Assembly: GCA_965246715.1 (NCBI GenBank)
Contig: CBDFFH010000012.1
Span: forward strand, 32,001 to 96,000
Length of the DNA stretch: 64,000 bases
Source: Chamaesiphon sp.
GTDB lineage: Bacteria > Cyanobacteriota > Cyanobacteriia > Cyanobacteriales > Chamaesiphonaceae
Direction of reading: 5' to 3'
Shown here: positions 1,500-18,034 of the stretch, one piece after another
How positions within the stretch are numbered: the stretch's first letter is position 1
How the letters are laid out: every line of letters starts with the position of its first letter
The notes under the pieces: generated by a model
Seen by the model: the letters and a program-made list of their open reading frames with translations, nothing else
What the model was told of the DNA's origin: nothing
Database searches by the model: none
Translations under genes and position numbers: made by a program

Positions 1500-2914
1500 G
1501 GTTCTACCGAACTTACTATGCTAAATCAAGGATTGAAATGCCATGCTAGCAAACTTCTGATCTGAAAATTCTCAAAATTTCTAAACCCATATCCCATTCT
1601 TTTTATTAGCTTGAGTTTATTGTTAATTCCTTCGACGACTCCTTGAGTTGTTCTATTATCAAAATAGGCAATTATTTCACCAATCCATCTTTTAATAGTT
1701 CCACAACTCTTGGGGAATTTCCCACAAGCATTCTTGAGCCAGTCACACAAGCTTATTAGCCCATTTCCCCAATCTGTTTTTGATTCAAATATATCTCTAA
1801 ATAACTCTTTTGTTTTGTGCATTGCTGCTAATTCTGGAAAAACGTCTCCAATCTCTTTCAACTTCTCTTTTTGCAATTCATTCAAATCCGCTTCGTTTTT
1901 GAGTATTGCATATTTACTGTGAGTTAATGCTGCTAATTTCTTGTTCTTTTCATCTTTGTTCTTCACCCTCTCAGCCTCTCTTTTGATTTTAATTCTCTCT
2001 CGATCTAACTCTTCATTTATCTGTTTCATTACATGAAATCTGTCTCCAACCACTTCAGCATTTGGTATCAATTCATTTACCAGACTTTTGTATGATGAAA
2101 ATAGATCGATACTTACTTCTGTAATTTGGTTCAAAACCTCCGAACCCCAAGACTTCAAGCACTCACCAATACATTCTTGAGTCCTTTTTGGTAAGATGGC
2201 TATTAACTCTCTTTTTTCTAGATCTACTAACACCGCACAATAGTTTTTTTGCCCTTTAACAAAGGCAATTTCATCAATTCCTAGTCTGGTTAAATTCTCT
2301 GGCTTTTTTTGCACTAGATTTACCCCAGCTTTTTTGATTATTGTCTCCACTTCTTGCTCACTTAATCCATTTCTTTTGGCAACACTTTTAATATCACTAG
2401 CTAGACTCTCTTCGACAATCTTCTGCTTCATTCGCTCGGTGAAATGACTTCTCTTTTTGATGAAATTTAATTCCTCACTGAATTTTCGACCACAACTCAT
2501 ACACTTGAATTGACGACGATTAATTTTAAGGTAAACATCATGTTCACCGAATGGTAGATCTCTCACTGTTAATTAGTGATTCTCATGAAGTTTATTACTT
2601 TCAGTTCCACAATGAGGACACACTGCTTTTAATTGCTGATTTTCTAGATAAATAAAATAACCGATTTCATCTAAGATCTTATAAGCAGTGACGGTCATTC
2701 CGTCGATATTAAGAATTTCATTAATGGTTTTTAGTTGCGATTTGGATGACATAATGCAATTCAAGCTTATTTGTTGCCAGAAATCAAGATCTTACTATTC
2801 TATAATAAAATCTGTCATTTATGCTGCACCAAGCTTCCATAACTCAAAATTATCAATTTTGTCAATTAAACTTGATTCTTATCCACTACTTAGCATAGCA
2901 AGTTCGGTAGAGCC
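1500..2914 (-). mobile_element. ISL3-family insertion sequence, 1415 bp
   Basis: Terminal IRs GGTTCTACCGAACTTACTATGCTA / GGCTCTACCGAACTTGCTATGCTA (22/24). 8-bp TSD AAAATTGT at 1492-1499 and 2915-2922. Confidence 0.95.
1526..2764 (-). pseudogene. ISL3 transposase with one in-frame premature stop
   Basis: CPHCG zinc finger, LGIDE, SIDL, DRFHV and EGINNKLK motifs. The two ORFs share a frame: ...HENH-TAA(2573-2575)-LTVRDLP. Confidence 0.9.
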
Positions 2915-3561
2915 AAAATTGTTGCATCACTTCGCTATTATACATCGTGCAACCGTTACCCCAAACACCGTGAATGATGGTGTTGATACCTTGGCTATGG
3001 TAATAACGTACTCGTTTACGAATCGTCTCTTCGTCGGCATTATTAGTGATTTGATAGCGACTTAAATAGATGCCCCTAATTACTTTTTTATCCCAAGGAG
3101 TTTGGGGGACGGCGGTAGTTGCGATCGGGGTAGTAGGAGTAGGGGAAATTGCGCTCGAAGGTGAGGGACTGACTGATGGTTTTAGTTTGGGGGGATTTAA
3201 TACTTTGGTATCTGAAGGTAGTGTCGCGATCGGTTCTGGTTTGATGGCAACTACTGGCGATTGAGTTGCAATTGGTTTGGGTGAGGCTAAAAAAGGGATC
3301 GGTAATTTTTGAGCGACTGCTAATAATGGCTTGATATTTCCTTGGGGAATCAACCACCAATAGCCGCCACCTAACATGAGGAGAACTACCGAGATGGGAA
3401 TGTTGGAGCAACCGCAGCCTTTGTTTTTTTTGTCTGGCATGGGGGATAGGGGGTAGTGAACAGTGAGTAGGGATTTGTAGGAGCAGGTTTAGCCAGCAAT
3501 TTTTGCAGATCGTCAATAACATCTAAACAAAACCTGCCCTCATCTGAGTATTATGGATCTT

Positions 3562-5169
3562 CTAAATATCTAAACCTCGAATATACAGATGTTCGGGGTG
3601 TTCGATCGAGAATTGATAGTAGATTTTGGTTTTGGCGTTGGCGGGGAGATCTAGTTCCCAGGTTAGTTTACCCAATTCTCCAAGTTGAATTTGGGGGGAG
3701 ATTTTGAGTACTTTGACTTTGATTTGTTCGTTGCGGCTATGGGGGAGCTGGTCTTCGATTTGGATGCGATTGGGGGTGGCAAGTAAATTAGTTATTGTCA
3801 GGCGATAGGCGAAGGTAATCCGGCGATTGCCGCCGATAAATTTTTTATCGACTTGGCGTTCGATTAATTCACGATCGATCTTGATGCCTTCATCTACACC
3901 TAAATTGAGTTTGAATTCTTGTCCAGGGGCAATATTTTCTAAATTAGTCTTACCAACAAACATATCGTCGCGGAAAATATTTGCGGCTCCTGGCAAGAGT
4001 GTCGCTCCGTCGGGGAGATTTTTGGCTCTGGCTTGGAGGTAGGCAAAACTTACCAAGCGCGGCATGGCGATATATTCTAACCTACAGGGAAATCGATCGT
4101 GTAAAATCGTGACTTTATGTGGGTTGCCGTCGCTGGGGATATTTCCACCACCTGCTAGTTGAAATGTCACCACGCTTCCCTGCTGTGAGACGTCAGCGAC
4201 AACGGTTTCGGCTGTATAGTTCAGTGTGGGGATGTCTGTGTCATCTGCTTCGCTAAATGCGCCGCCTGCGGGAGCTGCGGCGACCGCAAAATCCATGTCT
4301 GCATTTCTTCGCATCCTCATCATTGGCGCAGACGGAACGGGTGCGGGTACGTCGATGTACCAGGGGTTGAGTTTGGGTGGGAGCGTTCCTAGTCCTGGTT
4401 TGGCGGTGGAGAGGATGAGGTTGACATGCGACCAATCTTCGCCGGTGGTTTGGGTAATTTCGGCGAGGTAATTGAGTTGGATGGTATCGCTGGCACTTTG
4501 GACGCGCAGATCGTAGAGGGGTGTCCAACTGGCTCGATCGATAACGTAGACTACCTCTAATTGAAATTCGCCTGCGCCTGTGGGTTCGATGCCGACTCTG
4601 AGTTCTAGGCTTTCTTTACTATAGGGGGTTTGCACTTCCCGTAATTGCAGTTGGAGACTTTTGAGTCGCTTGTCGATTTGGCGTTGCTGGTGCTGCAAAT
4701 CTTCGGTTGCGAGGGCGTATTCGGAGTTTTTGGTGCCGATGAAGGTGAGGAGATTTTGGGTGTCTTCTAGCCCGATTTGTTGGCTGGCGAGGCTGCGGGA
4801 GAAGGTGGTTTCGGTTTTTTCGCGCAAGCCGTAGATGAAGCTCGATTGGAGGGCGAGGGTGTTAATTTGATATTGCAGATGGCGTTTTTCGGTTTCTAAG
4901 CGATCGATTTCGGCGGTGAGTTCGGCGATCCGCTCGACGACTGGCTCGATGGTGTATTGGCGATCGGTTGTGACTCCTTGCAATTTGACGGGGATTTGTC
5001 CTTTGCCGCTGATGCGGATCGATTCGGGGTCGAGGGTGGGTGGGAGGTCGAGGAGGATGAGTTGGCGTTCGGTTCCGGTGAGGTTGATGGTTCCTTGGCG
5101 GGTAATTAGGGCGCGATCGGTGTAGACTGTCACTGCGGTAATTTGAGTGGCGATCGATGGCGATGTCAT
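3562..5169 (-). CDS. Mucoidy inhibitor MuiA family protein (DUF4140/DUF4139)
   Basis: ITAVTVYTDRALITR N-terminus, coiled coil, ASWTPLYDLR and QTTGEDW motifs. Confidence 0.85.
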   Translation of the reverse strand: MTSPSIATQITAVTVYTDRALITRQGTINLTGTERQLILLDLPPTLDPESIRISGKGQIPVKLQGVTTDRQYTIEPVVERIAELTAEIDRLETEKRHLQYQINTLALQSSFIYGLREKTETTFSRSLASQQIGLEDTQNLLTFIGTKNSEYALATEDLQHQQRQIDKRLKSLQLQLREVQTPYSKESLELRVGIEPTGAGEFQLEVVYVIDRASWTPLYDLRVQSASDTIQLNYLAEITQTTGEDWSHVNLILSTAKPGLGTLPPKLNPWYIDVPAPVPSAPMMRMRRNADMDFAVAAAPAGGAFSEADDTDIPTLNYTAETVVADVSQQGSVVTFQLAGGGNIPSDGNPHKVTILHDRFPCRLEYIAMPRLVSFAYLQARAKNLPDGATLLPGAANIFRDDMFVGKTNLENIAPGQEFKLNLGVDEGIKIDRELIERQVDKKFIGGNRRITFAYRLTITNLLATPNRIQIEDQLPHSRNEQIKVKVLKISPQIQLGELGKLTWELDLPANAKTKIYYQFSIEHPEHLYIRGLDI

Positions 5170-5271
5170 GGTAATTTTGGGGGGATTTTGGGGATTGATA
5201 TAGTTAAGTAGATATTAATCTAAAGTTTGGACGGGTGCTTTCCTGGGGGGTGTTAGTGGGTGGAACCCGGA

Positions 5272-5329
5272 TCTGGGGGGTGGCCTCCCCCCAGACCCCC
5301 CCGTTGAAGGGCGGAGTGCCGCCCCTCAA
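5272..5329. repeat. GC-rich double-hairpin intergenic element (REP-like)
   Basis: TCTGGGGGG(5272-80) pairs with CCCCCCAGA(5287-95); TTGAAGGGCGG(5304-14) pairs with CCGCCCCTCAA(5319-29). Confidence 0.55.
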
Positions 5330-5504
5330 ACTCCCCTGCACAAGGGTTTGTTTGTTGGCAGCGGGGCGCGCTTCGCATTAGCTCTGCACTGTGGGTCGAT
5401 CTCTGGGTGAGGGATGGCTTGTTGAAAAAAAAACTTATAAAAATAGACTTCCAACTTACTTCTAGCCACTATCCCCTATCCCCTAAAACACCAGTAACTT
5501 TGTT

Positions 5505-7154
5505 TTGATGCAAGATGTGAAAGCGATGTATTCTGCCCCATTGTCAGAAATTACTACTGTCGCAGCAGAGCGCGGAACGATCGAGCAATTGCTGGCGATT
5601 GGTACTGCGCTATCTGATTGTCTGAATTTAACCGAATTGCTCGACTTGATTTTAACCAAGAGTCGAGAAATTACTTGTAGTGATGCGGGTAGTGTCTATT
5701 TGATCGATCGGAGTGGGAGCGAACCAAAATTAATCTTTAAAGCCGCTCAAACTGATTCCCTCCCGAATATTTCGTTTCAGTTGGCAAGTATTCCCCTCGA
5801 TCTCGAGAGTCTCGCTGGCTATGTAGCAACTACAGGGGAGAGTCTGAATATTCCGGATGCTTACGCGCTACCGCAGAATGTGCCGTACAAGTTCGATCGC
5901 CATTTCGATCGCGAGTTTGCTTATCGCACGGTATCGGTGTTGGTATTACCGATGCAAAATCGCGATGGTGAGACAATTGGGGTACTGCAATTGATCGATC
6001 GCAAGCTTAATGCTGCACTGAGAATTACGCCAGATAATGCGCTGTCGATTACTCAGGCTTATTCTGATTGGGAGCAACAGATCGTCCGCTCGCTGGCTTC
6101 TCAAGCGGCGATTTCGATCGAGCGCAATTATTTATTGGAAAGTATCGAGGAACTTTTTGCTGGGTTTGTGACTGCATCCGTCCAAGTCATCGAAAGTCGC
6201 GATCCCAGTACGGCGGGACATTCGGAGCGAGTTGCCCAATTGAGCGTGCGGCTGAGTCGGGAAGTCAGTGCCGTGACGATGGGGGTGTTTGAGTCAGTGC
6301 GATTTAGCGATCGCCAAATCCAAGAAATCCGCTATGCAGCGATTCTACATGATTTTGGTAAGATTAGTATCCCCGAAGCGATCGTCCAAAAAGGACAAAA
6401 ACTCTATCCGCATCAACTAGCGGAACTCAGCTACCGCTTCAATCTCGTCCGTCGCACCTGGGAACTGGAGTGTGCCGAGCGCAAGTTTACTTATTTGTTC
6501 GATTTGCAGCATCAGCACCAGTCAAAAGCAGATTGTCCACACTGTAATTATCTCAGCCAACTCGATCGCGATTTGGTTGTCAAACTCGATCGATTACAAG
6601 CCTACTGGGAGTTATTAAACAAGCTCAATCGACCTGATGTGGTGCTAGATCGAGAATTTTCCGAAACGCTGGACACGATTGCCCTCGATCTCCAACAACT
6701 CTCGGAGTATACCTATCGCGATCTTGCTGGCAATTTACAACCCCTGCTTACTACCGCTGAGATCCAGCAACTGCTGATTCCACGCGGTTCGCTCACTCCC
6801 GCCGAACGGTTGGTAGTAGAGTCACATGTTAGTCATACTTATGACTTCCTCAAAAAAATTCCCTGGACGAAACACCTCCAAAATGTCCCCAAAATTGCTG
6901 GCGCGCATCATGAAAAATTAGATGGTAGCGGTTATCCTCACGGACTAACTGCGAGCGAAATTCCGCTCCAATCACAGATTATGACGATCTCGGATATCTA
7001 CGATGCGCTCACTGCTGGAGATCGACCATACAAGCCACGGTTGTCGATCGATCGCGCATTGGCGATTTTGCATCAAGAGGTAGCCACCGGCAAAATCGAT
7101 GGCGAGCTATTAGCGCTGTTCGAGCAGCGAGAAGTGTATATACTTTCAAATTAA
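5505..7154 (+). CDS. GAF + HD-GYP cyclic-nucleotide phosphodiesterase
   Basis: N-terminal GAF domain; GHSERV, LHDFGK, HHEKLDGSGYPHGL, DIYDALT and RPYK motifs. Confidence 0.9.
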   Translation: MMQDVKAMYSAPLSEITTVAAERGTIEQLLAIGTALSDCLNLTELLDLILTKSREITCSDAGSVYLIDRSGSEPKLIFKAAQTDSLPNISFQLASIPLDLESLAGYVATTGESLNIPDAYALPQNVPYKFDRHFDREFAYRTVSVLVLPMQNRDGETIGVLQLIDRKLNAALRITPDNALSITQAYSDWEQQIVRSLASQAAISIERNYLLESIEELFAGFVTASVQVIESRDPSTAGHSERVAQLSVRLSREVSAVTMGVFESVRFSDRQIQEIRYAAILHDFGKISIPEAIVQKGQKLYPHQLAELSYRFNLVRRTWELECAERKFTYLFDLQHQHQSKADCPHCNYLSQLDRDLVVKLDRLQAYWELLNKLNRPDVVLDREFSETLDTIALDLQQLSEYTYRDLAGNLQPLLTTAEIQQLLIPRGSLTPAERLVVESHVSHTYDFLKKIPWTKHLQNVPKIAGAHHEKLDGSGYPHGLTASEIPLQSQIMTISDIYDALTAGDRPYKPRLSIDRALAILHQEVATGKIDGELLALFEQREVYILSN

Positions 7155-7512
7155 TATTAACTCGGTCTAGCGCAGAATCGCTGTTGCGATTTAATACCAA
7201 TTAAAAAACGATCCGGACAGATCGATCGACTCCAGAGACAGCCTGACTTCCCCAATCCAAAATCCAAACAAGTATTACATGATTTTATTGATAAATCACC
7301 TTGGTCTTGGGTAGAATATGGCTTTGTTTCTCACTGGTTTAAGCCGATCTCGTCTGGTACGGAGCATTGAAGCGATCGAATAACTCGACCGTGGTAATCC
7401 CTGTTACTTGCTGGCGTTTCTTTGGTGGATTGTCAATAAGACAAACGAAAAGAGTTCCAACAAAGCCTAAACACCTTGCCGAAACCCTTTTCTAGTGCTG
7501 TTTTTACCCTAG

Positions 7513-7586
7513 TCGGAATGAGAGGATTCGAACCTCCGACCCCTGCTTCCCGAAAGCAGTGCGCTACCAAGCTGCGCTACATTCCG
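7513..7586 (-). tRNA. trnP: tRNA-Pro (anticodon CGG), CCA not encoded
   Basis: Reverse complement CGGAATGTAGCGCAGCTTGGTAGCGCACTGCTTTCGGGAAGCAGGGGTCGGAGGTTCGAATCCTCTCATTCCGA folds as a cloverleaf with a GTTCGAATC T-arm. Confidence 0.97.
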
Positions 7587-7778
7587 ATGTTAATGATATC
7601 AGCATAGTATTGTATCACTAAAGTTTTGGTTCTGCGTAAAAATGCTCGAAATCTTTGGCGCAGCATCGCTGCTGGCGACATGGAATGAGAATCGACTTTA
7701 AATCATTCTCGAGCTAAGTAGGCTAGAATGTTCATCTGGAAACGATCTTTACAAAAAATATCTTGAGAGGCTTGTAAG

Positions 7779-7916
7779 ATGCGAATCGATCGATTGTTGA
7801 TAGTCGGTGTTCTGACTGGATGTGTCATGACGGGCTGCAAAGGCAAAAAAGAAAACACAAAACCTGCCGCAACACAAATTAATAATGTTTCTGGTCAGAT
7901 CTACAATAAGCGCTAG
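7779..7916 (+). CDS. Putative 45-aa small lipoprotein
   Basis: MRIDRLLIVGVLTGCVMTGCKGKKENTKPAATQINNVSGQIYNKR; GAGAGG RBS at 7765-7770, lipobox-like xTGC, terminator just downstream. Confidence 0.5.
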   Translation: MRIDRLLIVGVLTGCVMTGCKGKKENTKPAATQINNVSGQIYNKR

Positions 7917-7940
7917 CTCGGCTCCGCCCATATATTAAAA

Positions 7941-7973
7941 GGAAAGCTCCCCGGATCGTCACGGGAGCTTTTT
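7941..7973. terminator. Probable bidirectional intrinsic terminator
   Basis: AAAGCTCCC(7943-51) / GGGAGCTTT(7963-71) stem with A/T flanks, between the small ORF and ndhD. Confidence 0.7.
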
Positions 7974-7991
7974 AGACGAACACTTGCAGAT

Positions 7992-9572
7992 TTAATTAAC
8001 GATCTTTGGTGCTTGGTGAAACTGGCCGATTGCAGCAATCGGATCGGCCTTTTTGTGTGCGATCGTGGGAACGGAATCGCGTAGATGTGCGGTTAATGTC
8101 GTAGTTGTCGAATCATAAATCTGCGTCAGTAGCTTGGGATATAAACCCACACCGATAATCGGAATCAGCAGACAGGCAATAATAAATACCTCTCTGGGTT
8201 CCGCATCGACTAACTCTTCATGTTCGACCAATTCTTTGTTTTCCGTACCGTAGAAAATTTCCCGTAGCATCGACAGCAGATAAATCGGTGTGAGGATCAC
8301 CCCAACAGCAGCAACGAGTGTCATGATGACCTTAAATTGGAGATTGTAGGCATCGCTGGTTACAAAACCGACAAATACCATCAACTCAGCAACGAAGCCG
8401 CTCATTCCCGGCAACGCGAGGGATGCCATCGAGCACACCGTAAACATCGCGAAGATTTTCTTCATTTTTTGCCCGACACCACCCATCTCATCTAGCATCA
8501 GCGTGTGCGTGCGATCGTAAGTAGAGCCAACGAGGAAGAATAAACTCGCCCCAATCAGTCCATGCGATACCATTTGCAGCATTGCACCGCTCAAACCGAG
8601 ATCGGTGAAGGAGGCAATCCCAATCAACACGAATCCCATATGCGAAATTGAGGAATAGGCAATCTTGCGTTTGAGATTCCGCTGGGCGAATGAAGTCAAG
8701 GCTGCATAGATAATATTTACCACTCCCAAGACAATTAACACGGGTGCAAATGCGGCATGAGCGTCGGGTAACATTCCAGCATTCATCCGAATCAGGGCAT
8801 AACCGCCCATTTTCAATAGAATTCCGGCCAGCAACATGTGGACGGGTGCGGTAGCTTCACCGTGTGCATCGGGGAGCCAAGTGTGCAATGGAATAATTGG
8901 TAACTTGACTCCATAGGCAATCAATAATCCCGCATACATCCAGAGCTGGAAATTTTGGGCATAATCTTTTGCCGCCAATGTGCGCATATCGAAGCTGACG
9001 GTATCGCCATAAAATCCCATCGATAAGGCAGCGACCAGGATGAAGAGGGAGCCGCCAGCGGTATAAAGGATAAATTTGGTCGAAGCGTACAATCGCTTCT
9101 TCCCGCCCCAAATCGACAGGAACAGGTAAATCGGTAATAGTTCTAACTCCCAAACCAGGAAAAATAGCAACATATCTTGAACGGCGAAGACAGCAATCTG
9201 TCCACCGTACATGACTAACATCAAAAAGTAGAAGAGTTTGGGTTTGAACGTGACTGGCCAAGCCGCTAAAATTGCCAAGGTGGTAATGAATCCCGTCAGC
9301 AACACGAGTGGCATCGAGAGACCATCTACCCCAACCGACCATCTTAAATCTAGTTGTGGCACCCAGGTATAACTCTCTACCAATTGCAACTGGTCGCTAT
9401 GAATGTCATAACCGTTGCAGAAGGCATAAACAATCAGGGCAAAATCTAGCAATCCGACAATCAGAGCATACCAGCGAACTGTCCGCCCATTTTTGTCCGG
9501 GATGAAGGGAATTGCAAGTGAGGCTAAGACTGGAAATAAAATAATCGTCGTCAGCCAGGGAAAGTTAGTCAT
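7992..9572 (-). CDS. ndhD: NAD(P)H-quinone oxidoreductase subunit 4 (NdhD1/D2 type)
   Basis: [30 protein letters not shown] and [10 protein letters not shown] motifs; highly hydrophobic. Confidence 0.97.
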
Positions 9573-9579
9573 AGGCGTA

Positions 9580-9614
9580 ATGAATTATGAATTATGAATT
9601 ATGAATTATGAATT
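9580..9614. repeat. Short tandem heptamer repeat (ATGAATT)n, STRR-type
   Basis: About five consecutive ATGAATT units immediately upstream of the ndhD start. Confidence 0.85.
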
Positions 9615-9858
9615 CATTAAATTATGTAGCCAGACATAATTAATTATAAAACTCTATTAAGGCTGGCTGCACTCAGCAGCTAGTCTCGAGTCTATTAATC
9701 TGTCAGAGAATATTTTTTTCGCGCTACTTATCTGGAATAAAGATAATTTTAGGCACTACTTTTTAGCGTTGAGCTGCAAGTACCCATACCTTTTAGCCAC
9801 TATAGGCGATCCCCAGAAAGTGAGCGGAGGATCTCACAATTCCTTAACAAACAATCAG

Positions 9859-10220
9859 CTAATATTTTGGCGGGGGTCGGTGCAGTTGGCCGATAATTCG
9901 TGGCGGTTGCTGGCTGGGTTTGTCGCTTTCCAAACTCGGTGTCTGACTTACGATCGGACTCGGTTGCGGGGGGGAGATTATCCACCGGAACTTGGCGGGG
10001 TTTTGGTTGTAAGGGTTTGAGATCGGCAAGTTCGGCCTCTGTACCCGCACGATGTTCTTTGGCCGCAATCGTGAGATTTAGCGCCGATTTGAGTCAATTT
10101 TGTCGATCGGGTATGAGATCGATTGACTCAGTAGCGTGACTGAATTGTTATACGTATTGTAGTGGCTCGATTCAGGTTTGACATTAATTAATAGTTGCTA
10201 GAATAGTCTCGATGCTAAGA
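9859..10220 (-). pseudogene. Decayed paralogue of the repeat protein at 10764-11168
   Basis: Frame-shifted pieces NVKPES, SVTLLSQSI, LIPDRQN*LKSALNLTIAAKEH, PQPSPIV and PPRIIGQLHRP align in order with NVVRAES, SVDNLSQTI, LDPAHQDLVTSALHRAIASKEN, PQPSPSPII and PRPMINGRIRNP. Confidence 0.65.
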
Positions 10221-10222
10221 TC

Positions 10223-10675
10223 TCAGTTTTGATATCCAGAAACATCGATCGCCTGATACAACTGTTCAGACACATTGTAGTTGTCTCTTACTACCTGTAA
10301 ACAGCGTCGGCAAGCTTCCTTTCCTTCTTGATGCCACCATCGACAGTTAGCCCGAATCGGACAAGGTGGCAAGCTTTCGGTAACGGTTGGCAATCCATCG
10401 ACGATGCGCCCGATTAGGCGACACTGCTTACCATCGAAATGCTGGCAATCATGTTCGATACAGGTAGCTGCAATCCGAAAAATTTCAGTTGGTTTAACAG
10501 GTGATTCGAGCGTCAATAGTTCGGGCGGAATTTGCTTGGTTTGCGGTAGATGCACGAGTTCGGGTCGATCTGGAGTTCCCGTCACGATTCCGAAGATTAC
10601 GCTGTCATCCATCTCTGGCTCAGCACTCGGACACATCAAATATTTTGCTGGTTTTGACACTCGATCGCCTGTCAT
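10223..10675 (-). CDS. Cys-rich (8 Cys) cytoplasmic protein, putative metal-binding; family often labelled 'nitrogen fixation protein' without evidence (from recall)
   Basis: CPSA...C-x4-C-x-HF-x4-C...C-x5-CRWW-x-QEG-x3-C-x2-C pattern; AGAGG RBS; no signal peptide. Confidence 0.8.
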   Translation of the reverse strand: MTGDRVSKPAKYLMCPSAEPEMDDSVIFGIVTGTPDRPELVHLPQTKQIPPELLTLESPVKPTEIFRIAATCIEHDCQHFDGKQCRLIGRIVDGLPTVTESLPPCPIRANCRWWHQEGKEACRRCLQVVRDNYNVSEQLYQAIDVSGYQN

Positions 10676-10763
10676 TAATTTACCTCTAGGGGATATTCTT
10701 GATAATTATTTGTAAATGTCTGGAAACTCCATCGCGTTCTGAACGAACGATCGACTTTGCACC

Positions 10764-11168
10764 CTATCGTTCTGGTTTCACGATAATTCCATTAATCATC
10801 GGACTGGGAGTGGGTTTTGGGTTACTAACCTTGCCATTAATAATCGGACTTGGGCTAGGCTGTGGATTCCGAATCCTGCCATTAATCATCGGGCGCGGTT
10901 CGGTGCTGGCTGCGGGGACACCAGCAGTTACAGGTTGTCTAACGCTATTTTCCTTAGATGCGATCGCGCGATGTAGCGCGGATGTGACTAAATCTTGGTG
11001 GGCGGGATCGAGCGCGATTAATTTGGAGATCGTTTGACTGAGATTGTCTACTGAGGCGCGATTGGTACGAGCGGACTCTGCTCGTACGACATTAGCGACC
11101 AAACAACTCGCGATCGTCAAACTTAATGTCAGCCATAAGCGAGTACCCAGCGTGAAGTTACTTTTCAT
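10764..11168 (-). CDS. Secreted 134-aa protein with three C-terminal P[MI]ING repeats (candidate RiPP-like precursor)
   Basis: Likely start MKSNFTLG at 11168; signal peptide ending VRA|ES; PRPMINGRIRNP, PSPIINGKVSNP and PSPMINGIIVKP at 15-aa period. Confidence 0.8.
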   Translation of the reverse strand: MKSNFTLGTRLWLTLSLTIASCLVANVVRAESARTNRASVDNLSQTISKLIALDPAHQDLVTSALHRAIASKENSVRQPVTAGVPAASTEPRPMINGRIRNPQPSPSPIINGKVSNPKPTPSPMINGIIVKPER

Positions 11169-11411
11169 TGAGAATTTGCGATAATTAGAGAAGCTGACAA
11201 CTATTAGCTTCAATTGACGATCGCGAAATTACGGAAATAAGTTAGGCGGCAATTTCTGGTAGCTACCATCGCCAGTCCAACGATCGTCTAGATGATTCAA
11301 GTGCTTATTTGATAATCGAGCAGTCGGAGTTAAGTAAAAACTTCAAACTTGTCGCTCGGGATCGATCTAGCGCAAGCATCCAAGCAAATCGATCGAAAGC
11401 TCTAATTATTT

Positions 11412-11963
11412 TCAAGGTTTGTTCTTAGAAATATTCTCTTTCTTGAATTGCTGTTTGCGGAGACTTTCGATGCGCTCGTTAACTTGTTTTTGGAGTTCTA
11501 CTCGATCGACTCGCTTACTATAAATTTTTAAATACTTAACAGCTTCGTCAGTATTACCATCATTTTCCTTTAGTCTAGCTAGCGAGAGATAATCCTGCGT
11601 AGCAACCATCGGAGCGATCTCGTTATAGCTTCTAATGAGTTGCGGAATTACAATCGTGGCTAAGAAAGTTAAAATTATAAAAGATATTTTTGCATCTGCC
11701 TTGGTTGATTCGACTATGTACATCGTCAAAGCAAATAATAAGATCAGTACTAATAAAATAAATAGTAAATGCGGGTCTTGAAGTAAAATGCTGGATACCT
11801 GTTCGACCTCACTATTGTGACTACCGATGGTAAACCCGACTAGTGCCGTTGTCGTAGGCAATGTAAATTGTCGTAAGGAAGACCCTTTGCCACTAAGATG
11901 AAAAATCAGTGAGACGATACTGGCAATAATCGCCACGCTATTCCAAGTATTCATGATTAGCAC
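11412..11963 (-). CDS. Hypothetical membrane protein with C-terminal TPR-like helices
   Basis: About four hydrophobic segments, then YLSLARL..GNTDEAVKYL; AT-rich. Confidence 0.65.
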   Translation of the reverse strand: MLIMNTWNSVAIIASIVSLIFHLSGKGSSLRQFTLPTTTALVGFTIGSHNSEVEQVSSILLQDPHLLFILLVLILLFALTMYIVESTKADAKISFIILTFLATIVIPQLIRSYNEIAPMVATQDYLSLARLKENDGNTDEAVKYLKIYSKRVDRVELQKQVNERIESLRKQQFKKENISKNKP

Positions 11964-12000
11964 CCCAGTTTTTTGTTAACTGTTAAATAGCAACAGTTAT

Positions 12001-12052
12001 GCGTTCGCGTTCGCGAAGCATCTGCCTCAGCAGCGCCTTAGAACGAGAATCG
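12001..12052. repeat. Nested SDR5-like micro-elements in a HIP1-like site
   Basis: GCG|TTCGCG[TTCGCGAAGCATCTGCCTCAG]CAGCGCCTTAGAACGAGA|ATCG: a 24-nt outer element containing a 21-nt inner element. Confidence 0.6.
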
Positions 12053-12127
12053 ATATCGCGGGTAATACTAGCATGCCTAGGGGTTGAATTGTTGTCAGAG
12101 TTTTAGCTTTTTTCCGCCACCTAATTT

Positions 12128-13786
12128 TTAGCCTTGCTTTGCCAATAGGGGCGCAGCCGCAAGTAATGCCTTGGTATAGTCTTCTTGAGGATTGCTGAAT
12201 ATTTGTTGAGTTTCACCCATTTCGACAATTCGACCTCGATTCATCACAGCAATCCGATCGCACAAAAACCTTGCCAGCCATAGGTCGTGAGTGATAAAGA
12301 GATAGGTGAGATTGTCTTCGCGTTTGAGTTCGAGCATCAGATCCAAGACCTCTGCCTGAATCGTCGCATCCAGCATACTCACTGGTTCGTCACAAATTAC
12401 CAGTTTGGGTTTGGTAATTAGCGCGCGCGCGATGCCGACGCGTTGCTGTTGTCCGCCAGAGAGTTGATTGGGATAGCGATCGTAATATTCCTCGGCGGGA
12501 TTGAGTCCCACCCGTTCCAGCATCGCCAAAACTTGCGCTCTCGTCTCAGCCTCGGTAGCATTCAGCTGGTGGATCTGCAACGGATCGGCAATACTTTCGC
12601 CAATCGTCATCATCGGATTGAGTGAAGCACTCGGATCTTGGAAGATCATTTGCATGTCGCGACGTTTGGCGCGAATGGCGGTCGGCGAGAGCTGAGTTAA
12701 TTCTTCACCACAGAATGTCACCGTGCCGCTCGTCGCCGGAATCAATTGTAGGATCGTGCGGGAGAGCGTACTTTTACCGCAGCCAGATTCGCCAACCAAA
12801 CCGAAGATTTCGCCCTGATATAAATCCAAGCGTACGTTATCAACAGCTTTAATCGTTTCGGTCTTGGCTTGTGTAAATAGCCGCTGGAGGAAGCTAGTTT
12901 CGATCGTGTAGTATTTATGCAGATTTTCGAGCCTGAGAATCGGTTGCTCGTCTGACTGTGGATCTGGTACGAGTTGGGCGATCTCGTCATTTGCCTGAAT
13001 ATGTAGCGCCGATTTGAGTAAGATTTGGGTGTATTCAGCTTGAGGGTTGCCAAAAATCTGTTCGACGGTACCTTCTTCCTCTTTACGCCCTTTATTCATC
13101 ACGACAATCCGATCGCAATAAGTCGCGATCGTGGCAAGATCGTGAGAAATCAGTAATAGTCCCATCTGACGCTCATCACACAGCCGGGTTAATTCTTTCA
13201 AAATTTCCGCCGACACCCGCACATCCAAACTCGTAGTCGGTTCGTCGGCGATAATCAGCTTGGGATCGAGTAATAAAGCTAACGCGATCGCTACCCGTTG
13301 GCGCATGCCACCGCTGAATTCATGCGGATACTGATTCCACCTCGTTTCAGGAATTTTGACGGCTGCTAGGGTGTCTAGAGCGCGCTGTTTGGCTGCTTGG
13401 TTGGTTAGATTCGGTTCGTGAGCTTGAAGGGTCTCTAGGCAGTGGTTGCCGATTGTCATTAGCGGATCCAATCGCGTCATCGGATCTTGAAAGATCAACC
13501 CCACCGATTCTCCCCTAAAGCGGCGAATTGCCTCTGGATTGAGATCTGGCACCGATTGCCCCTCAAATAGAATTTTCCCCTGAATGCTAGAGCCGTCAGG
13601 AAGTAGCCGCATCACTGCTTTACCGAGAGTCGATTTACCGCATCCTGACTCCCCCACAAAGCCAATTTTCTCCCCAGCAGCCAATTGAAAGGATACATCC
13701 TCAACTGCATTTACCAAGTGCTGGCTCGATTCTTTCTGTGGATAAGTCACCCAGAGGTTTTGGACACTTAGAAGTGGGTTTGTCAT
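12128..13786 (-). CDS. Dipeptide/oligopeptide-type ABC ATP-binding protein with two fused NBDs
   Basis: GESGCGKS twice; SGGMRQR and SGGQQQR signatures; ADEPT and CDEPV. True start is probably MTNPLL at 13786; the upstream extension is repeat-derived. Confidence 0.92.
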   Translation of the reverse strand: MTNPLLSVQNLWVTYPQKESSQHLVNAVEDVSFQLAAGEKIGFVGESGCGKSTLGKAVMRLLPDGSSIQGKILFEGQSVPDLNPEAIRRFRGESVGLIFQDPMTRLDPLMTIGNHCLETLQAHEPNLTNQAAKQRALDTLAAVKIPETRWNQYPHEFSGGMRQRVAIALALLLDPKLIIADEPTTSLDVRVSAEILKELTRLCDERQMGLLLISHDLATIATYCDRIVVMNKGRKEEEGTVEQIFGNPQAEYTQILLKSALHIQANDEIAQLVPDPQSDEQPILRLENLHKYYTIETSFLQRLFTQAKTETIKAVDNVRLDLYQGEIFGLVGESGCGKSTLSRTILQLIPATSGTVTFCGEELTQLSPTAIRAKRRDMQMIFQDPSASLNPMMTIGESIADPLQIHQLNATEAETRAQVLAMLERVGLNPAEEYYDRYPNQLSGGQQQRVGIARALITKPKLVICDEPVSMLDATIQAEVLDLMLELKREDNLTYLFITHDLWLARFLCDRIAVMNRGRIVEMGETQQIFSNPQEDYTKALLAAAPLLAKQG

Positions 13787-13952
13787 GGGGAAGGGGGAAA
13801 GGGAGAAAGGGGGAAAGGGGGAAAGGGGAAGGGGAAAGGGGAAAGGGGAAGAATTAATAGTTAGATGCGGAGATTTTACCCACCCCGCCACTTCGTGGCA
13901 CCCCTCCTAGGAGGGGAATTTAACAGCCACTAGCCACTAGCCACTAGTCACT
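13787..13952. repeat. STRR-type (GGGGAAA)n tract, REP-like hairpins and (AGCCACT)n
   Basis: Purine tract 13787-13851; hairpins GCCAC-TTC-GTGGC and CCCCTCC-TA-GGAGGGG at 13887-13916; four AGYCACT units at 13925-13952. Confidence 0.8.
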
Positions 13953-13970
13953 ATCTCCTTTCCCCTTAAT

Positions 13971-14537
13971 TTACTTCTTCTCTCGCTCGAATCGCCGCAT
14001 CAAATAAGCCGCAGCAAAATCGCCATTGGGATGCTTAGAAAGAATATCAGCGAGATCGAAGACGCGCTGTGCCATTTCTACGCCTACCTTATCGATGATG
14101 GCTTGACGTTCGAGTTCGTTCATGTGACTGGCACGCGCGCTGGCTTGCCAAGAGCCGGAGAAAAGTTGGGGGATATTCGTATGGAAATTCAAGCGCTCGA
14201 GAATTTCCCACTCCCCCCTATCGCACCAGATCCCGCCGCAAGTGAGACAATGTTCGAGATAAAATGGTTCTCTAAGCGAAATTTTCCCGCGTGCCATCAG
14301 TCGCCCACATTCGGGACAAGGTGCTGTTTTGGCATCTAACGGGCCAGGGGTGTAAGCAAGATGATAGTTTTTAGCTAGAACATCAGGATTGGGCGTAGTA
14401 TTTTGACGCTGCGATCTCCAGGTTTGATAGTTGTGTCCGGGAATCCATTCACCCGCACACTCCGGACAATGTTTTGTTAAGAGCATATCGCTAAGAATTC
14501 CGTTCGCTAGCTCAGACCTACATTTAGGACAATGCAT
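13971..14537 (-). CDS. zf-TFIIB-like zinc-ribbon protein (two ribbons)
   Basis: CPKC...CPECAGEW and CPEC...CLTCGGIWCDRGE. Confidence 0.85.
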   Translation of the reverse strand: MHCPKCRSELANGILSDMLLTKHCPECAGEWIPGHNYQTWRSQRQNTTPNPDVLAKNYHLAYTPGPLDAKTAPCPECGRLMARGKISLREPFYLEHCLTCGGIWCDRGEWEILERLNFHTNIPQLFSGSWQASARASHMNELERQAIIDKVGVEMAQRVFDLADILSKHPNGDFAAAYLMRRFEREKK

Positions 14538-14658
14538 CTTTTGAATTATGTAATGATGAATTATAAATTGTGAATGACCGATCGTCGGTTAAAGGTAACG
14601 GCGCGACAGCTTTAATCTATGTCGAGCAGTTGCGCTAAATGTTGCATCTATTTTTCAA

Positions 14659-15003
14659 TTATGAATTACAGATAATATCTTGACAGTATTTGAGTAATAG
14701 ATTCAGTTTATCTCGATACGCTTGACGGCGCTGTGCGGCGGTTGCTGGATTCCGAGCGGCAGCGATAAACATCACATCCATTGGGAGTAGCCGCAATAGC
14801 CGATGGCTTTCGGTCAAATACGATCGCATTTTACCAGCGATGGGATCTGGAAGTTCGTCGTAACTCTGAGTGAGGATCTCGGACTCGAAAACCCCAATCG
14901 CGTTACTGAGAGCAACTTTGAGGTCGGGAATCGAATCCTCAGGCAAGTTGGAGAGCTGATTAAATAATTGTTGCCACAAAAAAATCTGGTGGTTTGGCAA
15001 CAT
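14659..15003 (-). CDS. patD: PatD family protein
   Basis: SYLTESHRLLRLLPMDVMF..AARNPATA..R...L.YC matches my recollection of the cyanobacterial PatD family; divergent from relA/spoT. Confidence 0.75.
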   Translation of the reverse strand: MLPNHQIFLWQQLFNQLSNLPEDSIPDLKVALSNAIGVFESEILTQSYDELPDPIAGKMRSYLTESHRLLRLLPMDVMFIAAARNPATAAQRRQAYRDKLNLLLKYCQDIICNS

Positions 15004-15272
15004 AAATAACTTAGTTAGAATAGAATATATGTAAATAATTTTACACTTTTCTAATACATCGCGCGCTACATCCGCACCCCGATTGTTACTAAATTTAGCG
15101 CTGTAGAGCCAGATCCAACCGAACTATCGATCGGGTAGATAACTGGCTCGATCGAGTGCATAATAAATTACTTCCGCTCCAAGAACTAGATATAAATAAG
15201 TGGTACCGATGCTGGCAGTTCGTCCCATGATGATGCCACAAGCTGTCAGTTTTAAAGCAGTCGGTGCCAAGT

Positions 15273-15499
15273 CAATACTTCTCGGTTAATCTAAAAACTA
15301 GTTAGTCCGCGTAGGCAGGCTTTTGCCGCGAGCGGCAACAACCGGACTTTGTTTTACTAGCGGCGACTTGCGGCTCGCGCTCCTCGGGTTCCCCGAGGGT
15401 TTAGCGAGACAGCGACCGAAATCGCGCTGAGGTTCCCTCAGCGTGCGTTTCGGTCAAGACAAGACACAGTCGCTAGCAGTTCTTAACCAAGAAGTATTG
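15273..15499. mobile_element. 227-bp MITE with IS4-like CAATAC termini and 10-bp TSD
   Basis: TIRs CAATACTTCTCGGTTAA / CAATACTTCTTGGTTAA (16/17); TSD GGTGCCAAGT at 15263-72 and 15500-09; many internal hairpins. Confidence 0.9.
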
Positions 15500-15572
15500 G
15501 GTGCCAAGTTTCCGCTTCTAATTATCTTTATTAAAGTTATTCCTAGATTTATTTATCTTATCTTCTTCAGCT

Positions 15573-17915
15573 ATGACTACTCCAATCTCTGTTCCTGCTA
15601 ACAATGTTGCTGTCATCGACGCTTCTAGCGAATCTCCAGATGGTGTTAAGACATATAACTGCGATATTCCGGCATGGCTGAAACAATGTTTGGATGAGGC
15701 CCAAAATCTTGATGTAACAGCAAGCGATCCGACAAGTAATTTGTCTAGAAGCGATCGGTTGTTAATCGCCGATGCCTTTCAGCTGGCCTACGATCTACAT
15801 GGCGAACAAAAGCGTAAATCTGGAGAACTTTATATCTGTCACCCGATTGCAGTAGCGGGATTGCTCAGAGATTTGGGTGGTGGTGCGGCGATGATTGCGG
15901 CGGGATTTTTACATGATGTCGTTGAAGATACGGAAGTGAAGATCGCTGAAATAGAATCTCGATTTGGCCAGGAAACCGCACATTTAGTTGAAGGTGTCAC
16001 CAAGCTATCTAAGTTTGAATTCTCTAGCAAAAAAGAACAACAAGCTGAGAATTTTCGGCGAATGTTTATCGCGATGGCACAGGATATTCGCGTGATCGTA
16101 GTCAAGTTGGCTGACCGGATTCATAATATGCAAACGCTCGATCATTTACGCGCCGATCGACAACTCGCGATCGCCCAAGAAACTCGCGATATTTTTGCCC
16201 CATTAGCCGATCGATTGGGCTTGGGACAGATCAAATGGGAATTAGAAGATTTAGCTTTTAAATACATCGAAGCTGAAGATTATCGACGCATTCAGGATTT
16301 AGTTGCCGAGAAGCGGACGGCAAGAGAGGCGAGGATTGCCAATGTTACCGAAATGATTCGCCATCGTCTCGATCGCGCGAATATTAAATACATCGATATC
16401 AGTGGCCGACCGAAACATTTATACAGCATCTATCAAAAGATGCGTTATCAGAAAAAAGAATTTAGCGAAATCTATGATTTGACAGCAATTCGCATTATCG
16501 TCGAATCAAATCAAGAATGCTATCTAGCTTTAGCCGAAATTCACGATGCTTTTAAACCAATTCCTGGTAGGTTCAAAGATTATATCGGTTTGCCAAAAAA
16601 TAACCGCTACCAATCCTTGCATACCACAGTAGTCGGATTTACAGGTACGCCCCTAGAAGTCCAAATTCGGACGATAGAAATGCATCACGTCGCTGAATAT
16701 GGCATTGCGGCGCATTGGATTTATAAATCAAACTCTAAATCCGAACAAAGTAAACCAGAACCGGGCAAAGTACCATCCACCAGACGCACCGAAGTCGATG
16801 AAAAATTTTCTTGGTTACGGCAACTACTTGAATGGCAGAATGATGTCAAAGATGCGATCGAATTTGACGACCATCTCAAAGATCATCTGCTCGAACGCGA
16901 TGTCTACGTCTTTACGCCCAAAGGTGAAGTAGTCTCGCTCCGTCAAGATTCGACACCTGTAGACTTTGCCTATCGAATTCATACCGAAGTGGGCAACCAC
17001 TGCGCTGGTGCTAAAGTAAACGATCGGATCGTCCCGCTCTCGAGGACGCTAAAAAATGGTGATATCGTCGAGATTATCACGCGAGAAAATAGTCGTCCTA
17101 GCCTCGACTGGCTGAATTTTGTCGTCAGTCCTGGCGCGCGCAACCGCATCACCCAATGGTACAAGCGATCGCATCGCGATGAAAATATCGCCAGAGGGCG
17201 GGAATTACTCGAACGGGAACTGGGCAAAAATGGGCTGGAATCCCTACTCAAGTCAGAGCCAATGCTATCTGTCGCCCAACGCTGTAACTACGTTACTGTC
17301 GAGGATTTACTCGCTGGTTTGGGCTATGGGGAAGTTACCCAGAAAATGGTAGTCAACCGGATTCGCGAGCTAGTAAAAGATCGTCAAGAACCCAGCGTCG
17401 AGCTACCACCAACTACCGCGCCAAAACAAACTACCTCAAATAGTAGTAGTGACTTCCCAATTTTAGGCATCGAAGGGCTGTTACATCACCTAGCAGGTTG
17501 TTGTAGCCCGATTCCTGGCGAACCAATTATCGGTTTAGTTACCCGCAACAGCGGCATTTCGATCCATCGCCAAGGTTGCGTGAATGTCGAACAGATGGAC
17601 GGCAATCGCCTACTACCCGTAAGCTGGAATACCCAGACTACAAATGAGAAACCACGTACCTATCCAGTCAGCGTTCAATTAGAAGTGCTCGATCGAGTGG
17701 GGGTACTCAAAGATGTCTTGTCCCGTTTGACGGATAATAGAATCAACGTGCGATCGGCGAATGTGATTACGCATTATGCCAAACCCGCAATAATCGATCT
17801 CTCGATCGAAGTCAGCGACAAAACCCAATTAGAACGCTGTTTCTCCCAAATCAAACAGATGAGCGATGTGCTCAATATTCGCCGTCTATCCCAAACTGAA
17901 GATAAAGTATTATGA
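15573..17915 (+). CDS. relA: Bifunctional (p)ppGpp synthetase/hydrolase (long RSH)
   Basis: LHDVVED hydrolase motif, RFKDY and YQSLHT synthetase motifs, TGS domain (VFTPKG..DFAY), CC zinc finger, ACT domain. Confidence 0.97.
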   Translation: MTTPISVPANNVAVIDASSESPDGVKTYNCDIPAWLKQCLDEAQNLDVTASDPTSNLSRSDRLLIADAFQLAYDLHGEQKRKSGELYICHPIAVAGLLRDLGGGAAMIAAGFLHDVVEDTEVKIAEIESRFGQETAHLVEGVTKLSKFEFSSKKEQQAENFRRMFIAMAQDIRVIVVKLADRIHNMQTLDHLRADRQLAIAQETRDIFAPLADRLGLGQIKWELEDLAFKYIEAEDYRRIQDLVAEKRTAREARIANVTEMIRHRLDRANIKYIDISGRPKHLYSIYQKMRYQKKEFSEIYDLTAIRIIVESNQECYLALAEIHDAFKPIPGRFKDYIGLPKNNRYQSLHTTVVGFTGTPLEVQIRTIEMHHVAEYGIAAHWIYKSNSKSEQSKPEPGKVPSTRRTEVDEKFSWLRQLLEWQNDVKDAIEFDDHLKDHLLERDVYVFTPKGEVVSLRQDSTPVDFAYRIHTEVGNHCAGAKVNDRIVPLSRTLKNGDIVEIITRENSRPSLDWLNFVVSPGARNRITQWYKRSHRDENIARGRELLERELGKNGLESLLKSEPMLSVAQRCNYVTVEDLLAGLGYGEVTQKMVVNRIRELVKDRQEPSVELPPTTAPKQTTSNSSSDFPILGIEGLLHHLAGCCSPIPGEPIIGLVTRNSGISIHRQGCVNVEQMDGNRLLPVSWNTQTTNEKPRTYPVSVQLEVLDRVGVLKDVLSRLTDNRINVRSANVITHYAKPAIIDLSIEVSDKTQLERCFSQIKQMSDVLNIRRLSQTEDKVL

Positions 17916-18034
17916 CCTTTGATATTACGAATGAAGCAACCCAAAATGCGATCGCTGGCGGACTCGCGATCGTGATTATTTTGGGTGCAATGACGATGAT
18001 GTTTACCAATCTCTGGACGACTAAAAAGAAGTAG
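17912..18034 (+). CDS. Putative 40-aa single-pass membrane protein coupled to relA
   Basis: ATGA overlap with the relA stop; MTFDITNEATQNAIAGGLAIVIILGAMTMMFTNLWTTKKK. Confidence 0.6.
   Translation: MTFDITNEATQNAIAGGLAIVIILGAMTMMFTNLWTTKKK

Follow-up and report, generated by a model that had tools for sequence, protein, structure and literature searches.

A predicted Sec-exported multi-core precursor and its eight-cysteine partner in Chamaesiphon: a recurrent bacterial gene pair with a candidate role in RiPP maturation

Peptides with a double-glycine (GG) leader, among them multi-core precursors such as those of plesiocin-type graspetides, are exported by PCAT/C39 ABC transporters, and the isoAsp RiPPs known as pamtides and pimtides arise through a PIMT-type methyltransferase that acts at a conserved Asp/Asn-Gly. 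In the accessible parts of PMC11414181 and PMC11626197, type I spliceotides are described as products of the radical SAM spliceases PlpXY and PcpXY, which act on Nif11 precursors at an XYG target. Similarly, the accessible part of PMC11626156 describes bufferins as Sec-exported RiPPs modified by MNIO enzymes. The gene pair presented here, found in a window of 64,000 nucleotides (the whole stretch of Chamaesiphon sp. DNA that was analysed), fits the logic of a RiPP precursor and its maturase but was assigned to no known class by any of the tests run here.

The pair consists of a gene for the 134-aa precursor P0002 (10764..11168, minus strand) and a gene for the 150-aa eight-Cys partner P0001, the putative maturase (10223..10675, minus strand), with an intergenic spacer of 88 bp between them (10676..10763, minus strand). 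Two co-oriented genes at this distance had been proposed in a sequence-only reading of the window, and the coordinates agree. Each gene is single-copy in the genome, and a six-frame scan of the 6.1-Mb genome recovered P0002 as the sole ORF with three P-h-h-N-G units. No terminator-like site was found in the spacer or elsewhere in 9550-11450, and a promoter scan of six found versus 3.6 expected was uninformative. The neighbours, named by reading, are an ndhD-like gene 650 bp downstream and a 183-aa membrane protein upstream, neither of which recurs among the homologous loci, and the nearest named relatives of the locus belong to Chamaesiphon and allied genomes. Two further repeats were also observed in this genome. 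A 7-bp unit, ATGAATT, stands in five perfect copies at 9580-9614, immediately upstream of the ndhD-like gene, and short tandem repeats of this kind are typical of cyanobacteria. In addition, a dispersed repeat occurs at about 20 places in the genome (G000; for example C2:123056, C12:116397 and C51:14208), with a six-frame translation containing P-L-L-N-G-G-S-G-G, and is probably a small non-coding repeat or MITE.

The precursor was read from its ATG; an upstream TTG start (149 aa) was dismissed because the homologues, 20 proteins at E<=1e-3 with P0002 itself counted, begin at ATG. The N-terminus is hydrophobic (15-residue Kyte-Doolittle maximum of 1.99 at residue 11), and A30-E31 recurs unchanged in 20/20 homologues, which is consistent with a predicted Sec signal peptide at residues 1-30 (11079..11168, minus strand) that would be cleaved by signal peptidase I after Ala30; the signal peptide first proposed for this gene thus stands as a prediction. 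Processing by signal peptidase II is a possible alternative. Cys22, the sole cysteine of P0002, lies inside the predicted signal in a lipobox-like I-A-S-C found in 18/20 close homologues and missing in the wider clade, and the core is free of cysteine. The signal is followed by a leader region (residues 43-73; 10950..11042, minus strand) that ends in an A-x-x-R-A helix and is the presumed recognition sequence, in which A64, R67 and A68 are invariant across 16/16 Sec-type precursors.

Four x-Gly core units follow the leader. Three of them are the P[MI]ING repeats already described from the sequence, which start at residues 93, 108 and 123 with a period of exactly 15 (10773..10898, minus strand; cores P-h-I-N-G-[RKI]-[IV] with Gly97, Gly112 and Gly127) and which Tandem Repeats Finder reported at 10789-10892 as a 45-bp period with 2.3 copies and 77% matches. 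The fourth had been overlooked and comes first in the protein, as P79-V-T-A-G83-V-P (residues 79-85, x = Ala, Gly83; 10914..10934, minus strand), with T81 and G83 nearly invariant; Ala takes the x position in 24/137 motifs of the Sec clade. The ING once taken as invariant holds within P0002 itself, whereas close homologues carry IYG, IND, IDG or TDG.

As far as the accessible text on bufferins goes, the likeness would lie in a Sec signal on the precursor, a cytoplasmic partner encoded next door and a product that would be a small exported protein; in P0002 the signal is predicted from hydropathy and a conserved A-x-A/E. In contrast to bufferins and other MNIO RiPPs, this locus encodes no MNIO/DUF692 or DUF2063 protein, the core has no Cys, and P0002 carries a separate conserved leader helix after its signal.

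The partner P0001 belongs to a large family, with 1,162 clusters at 50% identity (E<=0.001) and, at 90% clustering, 124 candidates of which 108 are homologues, whose named loci lie in cyanobacteria, alpha- and gammaproteobacteria, Acidobacteria, Streptomyces and Spirosoma (Bacteroidota). Across 146 aligned homologues, C15, C72, C85 and C111 are invariant and C77, C105, C122 and C125 are found in 145/146, together with invariant P16, R67 and R108 and nearly invariant W113 (145/146) and S17 (142/146). From this pattern we infer two Cys4 sites, C15/72/77/85 and C105/111/122/125, which would hold Zn or Fe/Fe-S, and the conserved Arg67, Arg108, Ser17 and Trp113 suggest a functional site. The eight cysteines and the lack of a signal (hydropathy maximum 0.75) reported at the outset for this protein were confirmed, but the accompanying His79 is unlikely to be an essential ligand: it is kept in 125/146 homologues and replaced by N, Q, Y or a gap in the other 21 (N or Q in 18).

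The judgement that this partner lies outside described families was upheld. No Pfam or NCBIfam model of the family rose above noise, and P0001 had no sequence match in the PDB. An AlphaFold2 model from the 146-sequence alignment (pLDDT 92.8, pTM 0.84), used in place of one from 30 sequences (pLDDT 49.7), shows three strands (26-34, 37-48, 66-71) that form a sheet, after which come short Cys-bearing helices. Foldseek returned nothing at E<=0.001 for this model against the PDB and viral models, and VIA-align found 0/48,161 PDB representative chains at Z>=2, so that no PqqD/RRE winged-helix chain was recovered by either search, an absence that does not prove the folds to be different. No known catalytic, SAM-, ATP- or O2-binding motif was recognised in P0001, nor was any membrane segment or two-fold internal repeat detected, and no long fusions of the family were found at 341-2000 aa, which is weak evidence. 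A likeness of the Cys spacing to YkgJ/DUF1540 had no support in Pfam.

ESM Atlas matches to P0001 were confined to clusters named 'nitrogen fixation protein/hypothetical'. The first of these names is an automatic annotation on a few records, no nif neighbour family recurs, and a role in nitrogen fixation was accordingly rejected; in the accessible part of PMC8784127, 'nitrogen fixation protein' refers to Nif11, and unnamed flanking genes gave no additional products on KspA. No description of the family was found in literature lying mostly outside subscription journals, so that spliceotide cluster maps may mention it; the sources included the accessible parts of PMC8784127, PMC11626197, PMC11414181, PMC11626156 and bioRxiv 10.64898/2026.09.06.749771. 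A literature search with the core motif string gave unrelated word matches only, among the matches listed.

The association of the two genes was examined in 32 genome loci, the best 80 of 441 metagenome matches, 5 of 11 plasmid matches and, from relatives, 27 more loci. Of the 120 distinct loci with a full-length enzyme gene obtained in this way, 97 with >=500 bp upstream were used and 23 with shorter flanks excluded. A strict h-h-x-G-h-h or ING motif occurred in a short co-oriented upstream ORF at 52/97 loci against 21/665 random positions, and a relaxed core motif at 72/97 loci against 97/908. The remaining 25/97 loci lacked even the relaxed motif upstream, and some initial misses (L015-L017) had their precursors a few kb away. 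As both motifs had been defined after viewing the same loci, a held-out test was run on 301 evenly drawn cyanobacterial genomes, 21 of them with an enzyme match, which yielded 19 loci once our own locus and two fragments were left out. Among these 19, two of which are very similar to loci examined earlier, 16 adjoin a match to a profile of GG-type precursors selected by leader alone (14 upstream, 2 downstream). By eye, one of the other three has a variant precursor downstream, another an upstream ORF of 222 aa that opens with a leader and core, and the last an enzyme extended at its N-terminus by a leader-like stretch. A peptide neighbour is thus almost universal, and the refuting condition named in the sequence-only reading, homologues with no conserved peptide beside them, did not hold.

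Presence and absence of the two genes also largely coincide among 61 relatives, 20 of which have an enzyme match. Each of the 20 full-length matches to the Sec-type precursor has an enzyme gene no more than about 1.2 kb away; four other matches to this profile cover only the signal peptide of ORFs of 900-1060 aa. The 12 GG-type matches, too, all share a contig with an enzyme gene, at a distance of 8 kb in one case. No orphan precursor was found in any of the 61 relatives; since many of the matches were in the training alignments, the informative part is that the 41 genomes with no match to the enzyme contain no orphans either. Where the enzyme gene is intact (15 relatives), 14 have a precursor match and one has a leader-like N-terminus fused to the enzyme. 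Where it is damaged (5 relatives), namely G007 (Cys15 to Tyr), G019 (Cys15 to Tyr, Arg67 to Pro and an internal loss), G024, G046 and G035 (truncated), four have no normal precursor nearby and G035 keeps one; G007, G019 and G024 share a common locus and their losses may be one event. In G029, two enzyme paralogues each lie downstream of their own type of peptide. The dedicated leader-plus-core precursor and partner first proposed for this locus form a conserved pair, and the pair recurs across several bacterial phyla.

Other genes accompany the pair much less regularly. Among 121 loci, in which short flanks make the counts lower bounds, a splicease-type radical SAM gene was found in at least 15, Nif11 precursors in at least 15, an ABC exporter in at least 5 and a HlyD-like gene in at least 5, and none of these four occurred at the Sec-type loci. 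Genes for a RiPP radical SAM methyltransferase and for a kinase/HopA1-domain pair are also among the neighbours, and many precursor/eight-Cys pairs stand alone, with no exporter or protease. A role for the partner as a ferredoxin or splicease accessory was rejected, as a splicease is seen in only 15/121 loci, many with short flanks. Separately, in a Nif11 cluster, the 277-aa ORF at L011:6146-6979 (plus strand) has no Pfam or NCBIfam match and is possibly a further new maturase, and three related genomes (L002-L004, ~1500-4360) have a run of small secreted Asn/Gln/Thr-rich proteins with curli-like repeats (by reading) immediately ahead of the precursor.

Set against spliceotides, as these are portrayed in the accessible text of the cited sources, the pair shares a core context, P-h-h-x-G-h-h in the eight-Cys cores and P/A-x-Y-G-V-I or similar in the Nif11 precursors of the same clusters, a likeness that is no more than suggestive, and a leader helix that acts on an enzyme has precedent in the RhaA leader and the Y protein. 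However, no radical SAM/SPASM splicease occurs among the ORFs at 4000-18000 of the window, P0001 has no family match, and the partner is a 150-aa protein with an unrelated fold. P0002 likewise has neither a YG motif nor a Nif11/NHLP leader, and Tyr at x is rare, with 0/72 loci and single cases elsewhere. Likeness to GG-leader/PCAT-C39 peptides, as far as the sources at hand describe them, rests on homologous precursors that carry GG sites near NHLP-type exporters and on the use of one leader for several cores. In contrast, the P0002 lineage has a predicted Sec signal in place of GG, and this locus has no ATP-grasp or other known maturase and no GG leader or PCAT exporter, which are present at some homologous loci. 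The traits shared with RiPPs in general are a gene-encoded leader-plus-core precursor, with a GG site between helix and core in homologues, and a dedicated, genetically coupled partner protein.

The precursors take several export forms around a common plan. Double-Gly leaders, with the amphipathic helix consensus I-x-D-L-I-x-E-A-V-x-N-A-x-A-R-R, occur in cyanobacteria, alphaproteobacteria and Spirosoma; Sec-signal precursors comprise the P0002 clade and, by eye, two Streptomyces peptides with signal-like N-termini; and further forms are short and without an export signal or have a duplicated helix-strand. The leader helix is thus present across three export routes (GG/PCAT, Sec and none), while the core consensus P-h-h-x-G-h-h holds across precursor types and the core Gly is invariant in 21/21 precursors selected by their leader alone. 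Up to six Gly motifs follow one leader in Sec types and tandem cores occur in GG types, with 10-61 residues between helix and core Gly, and in the GG types the cleavage site lies between the two. In the P0002 lineage, no protease site that would free the leader was found, and no Pfam or NCBIfam model scored above cut-off for the precursors tested. In duplicated partners, a helix+Gly-strand unit occurs twice, and its first copy matches the short type at 95.8% probability, and one subgroup of helix-strand-helix-strand partners resembles a small folded domain.

Direct profile evidence for homology between the P0002 helix and the GG-type helix is weak: hhalign gave a probability of 12% (P=0.0025) and, in a second comparison, 2% (P=0.023), and a leader matrix trained on GG types did not score P0002 above shuffles (24% of which were as high). 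The comparison of P0002-type with short-type precursors gave P=5e-4. The link to GG leaders is drawn instead from the L005 precursor, which is 37% identical to P0002 (E=4e-11), lacks a signal peptide and carries a Gly-Gly directly behind its helix, features that make it a bridge between the two types; a quick tree groups the 14 Sec-type loci with L005 and L008 on a single branch (SH-aLRT 98).

Unusual arrangements were also observed. Enzyme homologues with long N-terminal extensions bearing leader-like helices (L033:5737-6438, L131 and L202; P0111, P0112, P0195, P0169 and P0251), in Nostoc-type loci beside NHLP precursors, are possible natural leader-enzyme fusions; the GG-trained matrix gave a strong score to only 1/18 long N-terminal extensions, P0195 scoring 16.2, and did not recognise the Nostoc-type P0111/P0112. 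A 267-aa LuxR/GerE-domain ORF with a leader-like helix at its start (L135:1656-2459, minus strand) lies directly upstream of a truncated eight-Cys gene, and a 222-aa ORF headed by a leader helix and Gly core (L186:635-1303, plus strand), upstream of an intact enzyme gene, is possibly a protein-sized substrate. In addition, the partner peptides of L082, L096, L102, L103 and L112 end in N-P-Q-P-L-P-P with an atypical Gly core, a motif that was not found in the literature searched.

The residue before the core Gly is far more variable than the Gly itself. Over 72 loci it is C (18), N (11), I (11), L (7), T (7), M (5), A (4), W (3), V (2), F (2), H (1) or P (1), while 69/72 have I, T, L or V at position -2. 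Within the Sec clade, x is N in 95/137 motifs, and 11/39 precursors have no NG in the core; GG-type precursors supply direct analogues of the core with residues other than Asn, tandem cores included. The conserved residues of P0001 stay the same whatever x is. As x varies and Gly is constant, a modification would be expected to involve the backbone or the beta-branched residues on either side.

Several explanations can be set against maturation. The one that fares best, although we regard it as unlikely, is a non-catalytic complex in which the helix-plus-strand peptide binds, or is a structural subunit of, a Zn-stapled protein acting as chaperone, export escort or regulator, with the Gly kept for packing. 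The want of a catalytic motif in P0001 and eight Cys that suit two structural sites are in keeping with such a complex, as are the many pairs without exporter or protease; if all eight Cys were to fill two structural Zn sites, no open metal site would remain, and these points, together with the resemblance of the duplicated partners to a folded domain, give this explanation some weight. However, GG cleavage parts the helix from the core and Sec export would part the two proteins, one helix serves several cores at widely differing spacings, and the invariant Arg67, Arg108, Ser17 and Trp113 resemble a functional site.

An unmodified bacteriocin or signalling peptide with its immunity protein is improbable. 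The gene order of precursor then partner, the GG leaders and PCAT-type exporters of some loci and the patchy distribution (21/301 cyanobacterial genomes) would suit it, but the partner, unlike the variable cores, is conserved between phyla, the discarded leader contains an extra conserved helix, many partner peptides have no export signal, and the eight-Cys protein has no membrane segment. A peptidase or transpeptidase that cuts at x-Gly to release or cyclise the cores, with Cys15 as nucleophile, is about as improbable: the invariant Cys15-Pro16-Ser17 with two Arg, Sec-type precursors whose repeated cores come with no further protease site, and a relative that has Cys15 changed to Tyr and no precursor are all compatible with it, but His79 is N or Q in 18/146 homologues, no peptidase matches the structure, and cutting in the cytoplasm would detach the cores from the Sec signal. 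The Asn-Gly succinimide/isoAsp chemistry favoured by the sequence-only reading, which in the sources at hand would point to pamtides, is least probable of all despite the predominance of Asn in the Sec clade, since x spans 12 residue types with N in just 11/72 loci, 11/39 clade precursors do without NG, the enzyme's conserved residues do not follow x, and, unlike pamtides, the pair has no methyltransferase and no conserved Asn/Asp at the site, so that isoAsp formation is not the chemistry of the family.

On balance, P0001 is somewhat more probably than otherwise a dedicated RiPP maturase of an undescribed class that acts on the backbone at x-Gly. The helix is discarded at GG, is kept in all export routes and has the eight-Cys protein as its only constant neighbour, and is therefore presumably the recognition site for that protein; a tethered substrate is compatible with leaders that serve several cores at variable spacing. 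This reading is further favoured by the genetic coupling, the lack of orphan precursors and the joint decay of the two genes, by the recurrence of the enzyme gene in RiPP clusters, by the leader-like helices on some enzyme homologues, which hint indirectly at leader binding, and by the bufferin precedent for Sec export. Weighing against it are the want of a catalytic motif, the replaceable His79, the weak profile link between the P0002 helix and the GG type, the domain-like subgroup of partners, the lack of a site that would free the leader in the P0002 lineage, the precursor kept in G035 and the 25/97 loci without the relaxed motif upstream. In the proposed sequence of events, P0001 would bind two metal centres through its eight Cys and dock on the leader helix of the precursor, and the core would then join its three-stranded sheet as an extra strand, where the invariant Arg residues may hold the core backbone carbonyls. 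A backbone reaction tolerant of side chains would follow at each hydrophobic-hydrophobic-x-Gly-hydrophobic core; a metal-dependent oxidation or rearrangement at the x-Gly amide or the Gly C-alpha is one specific and unlikely form that it could take. Modified P0002 would exit by Sec, and cleavage by signal peptidase after Ala30 would release a protein of 104 aa in which as many as four sites are modified.

More tentatively, the pair might represent a widespread RiPP class, a reading about which we remain somewhat doubtful, in which a 150-residue, two-metal-centre enzyme of new fold carries out an unprecedented SAM- and ATP-independent backbone transformation at x-Gly, in the sequence setting shared with spliceases, on precursors whose leaders take PCAT, Sec or non-exported routes, with the Chamaesiphonaceae form being secreted and bearing several modified sites. 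In either case, the pair is real, conserved and apparently undescribed, and the P0001 family is large, lacks a model or solved relative and carries a misleading database name. Were P0001 a maturase, it would be unusually small for a stand-alone enzyme that modifies peptides, its tolerance of the residue before Gly would make it attractive for peptide and protein engineering, and it would represent an overlooked module in many spliceotide and lanthipeptide clusters.
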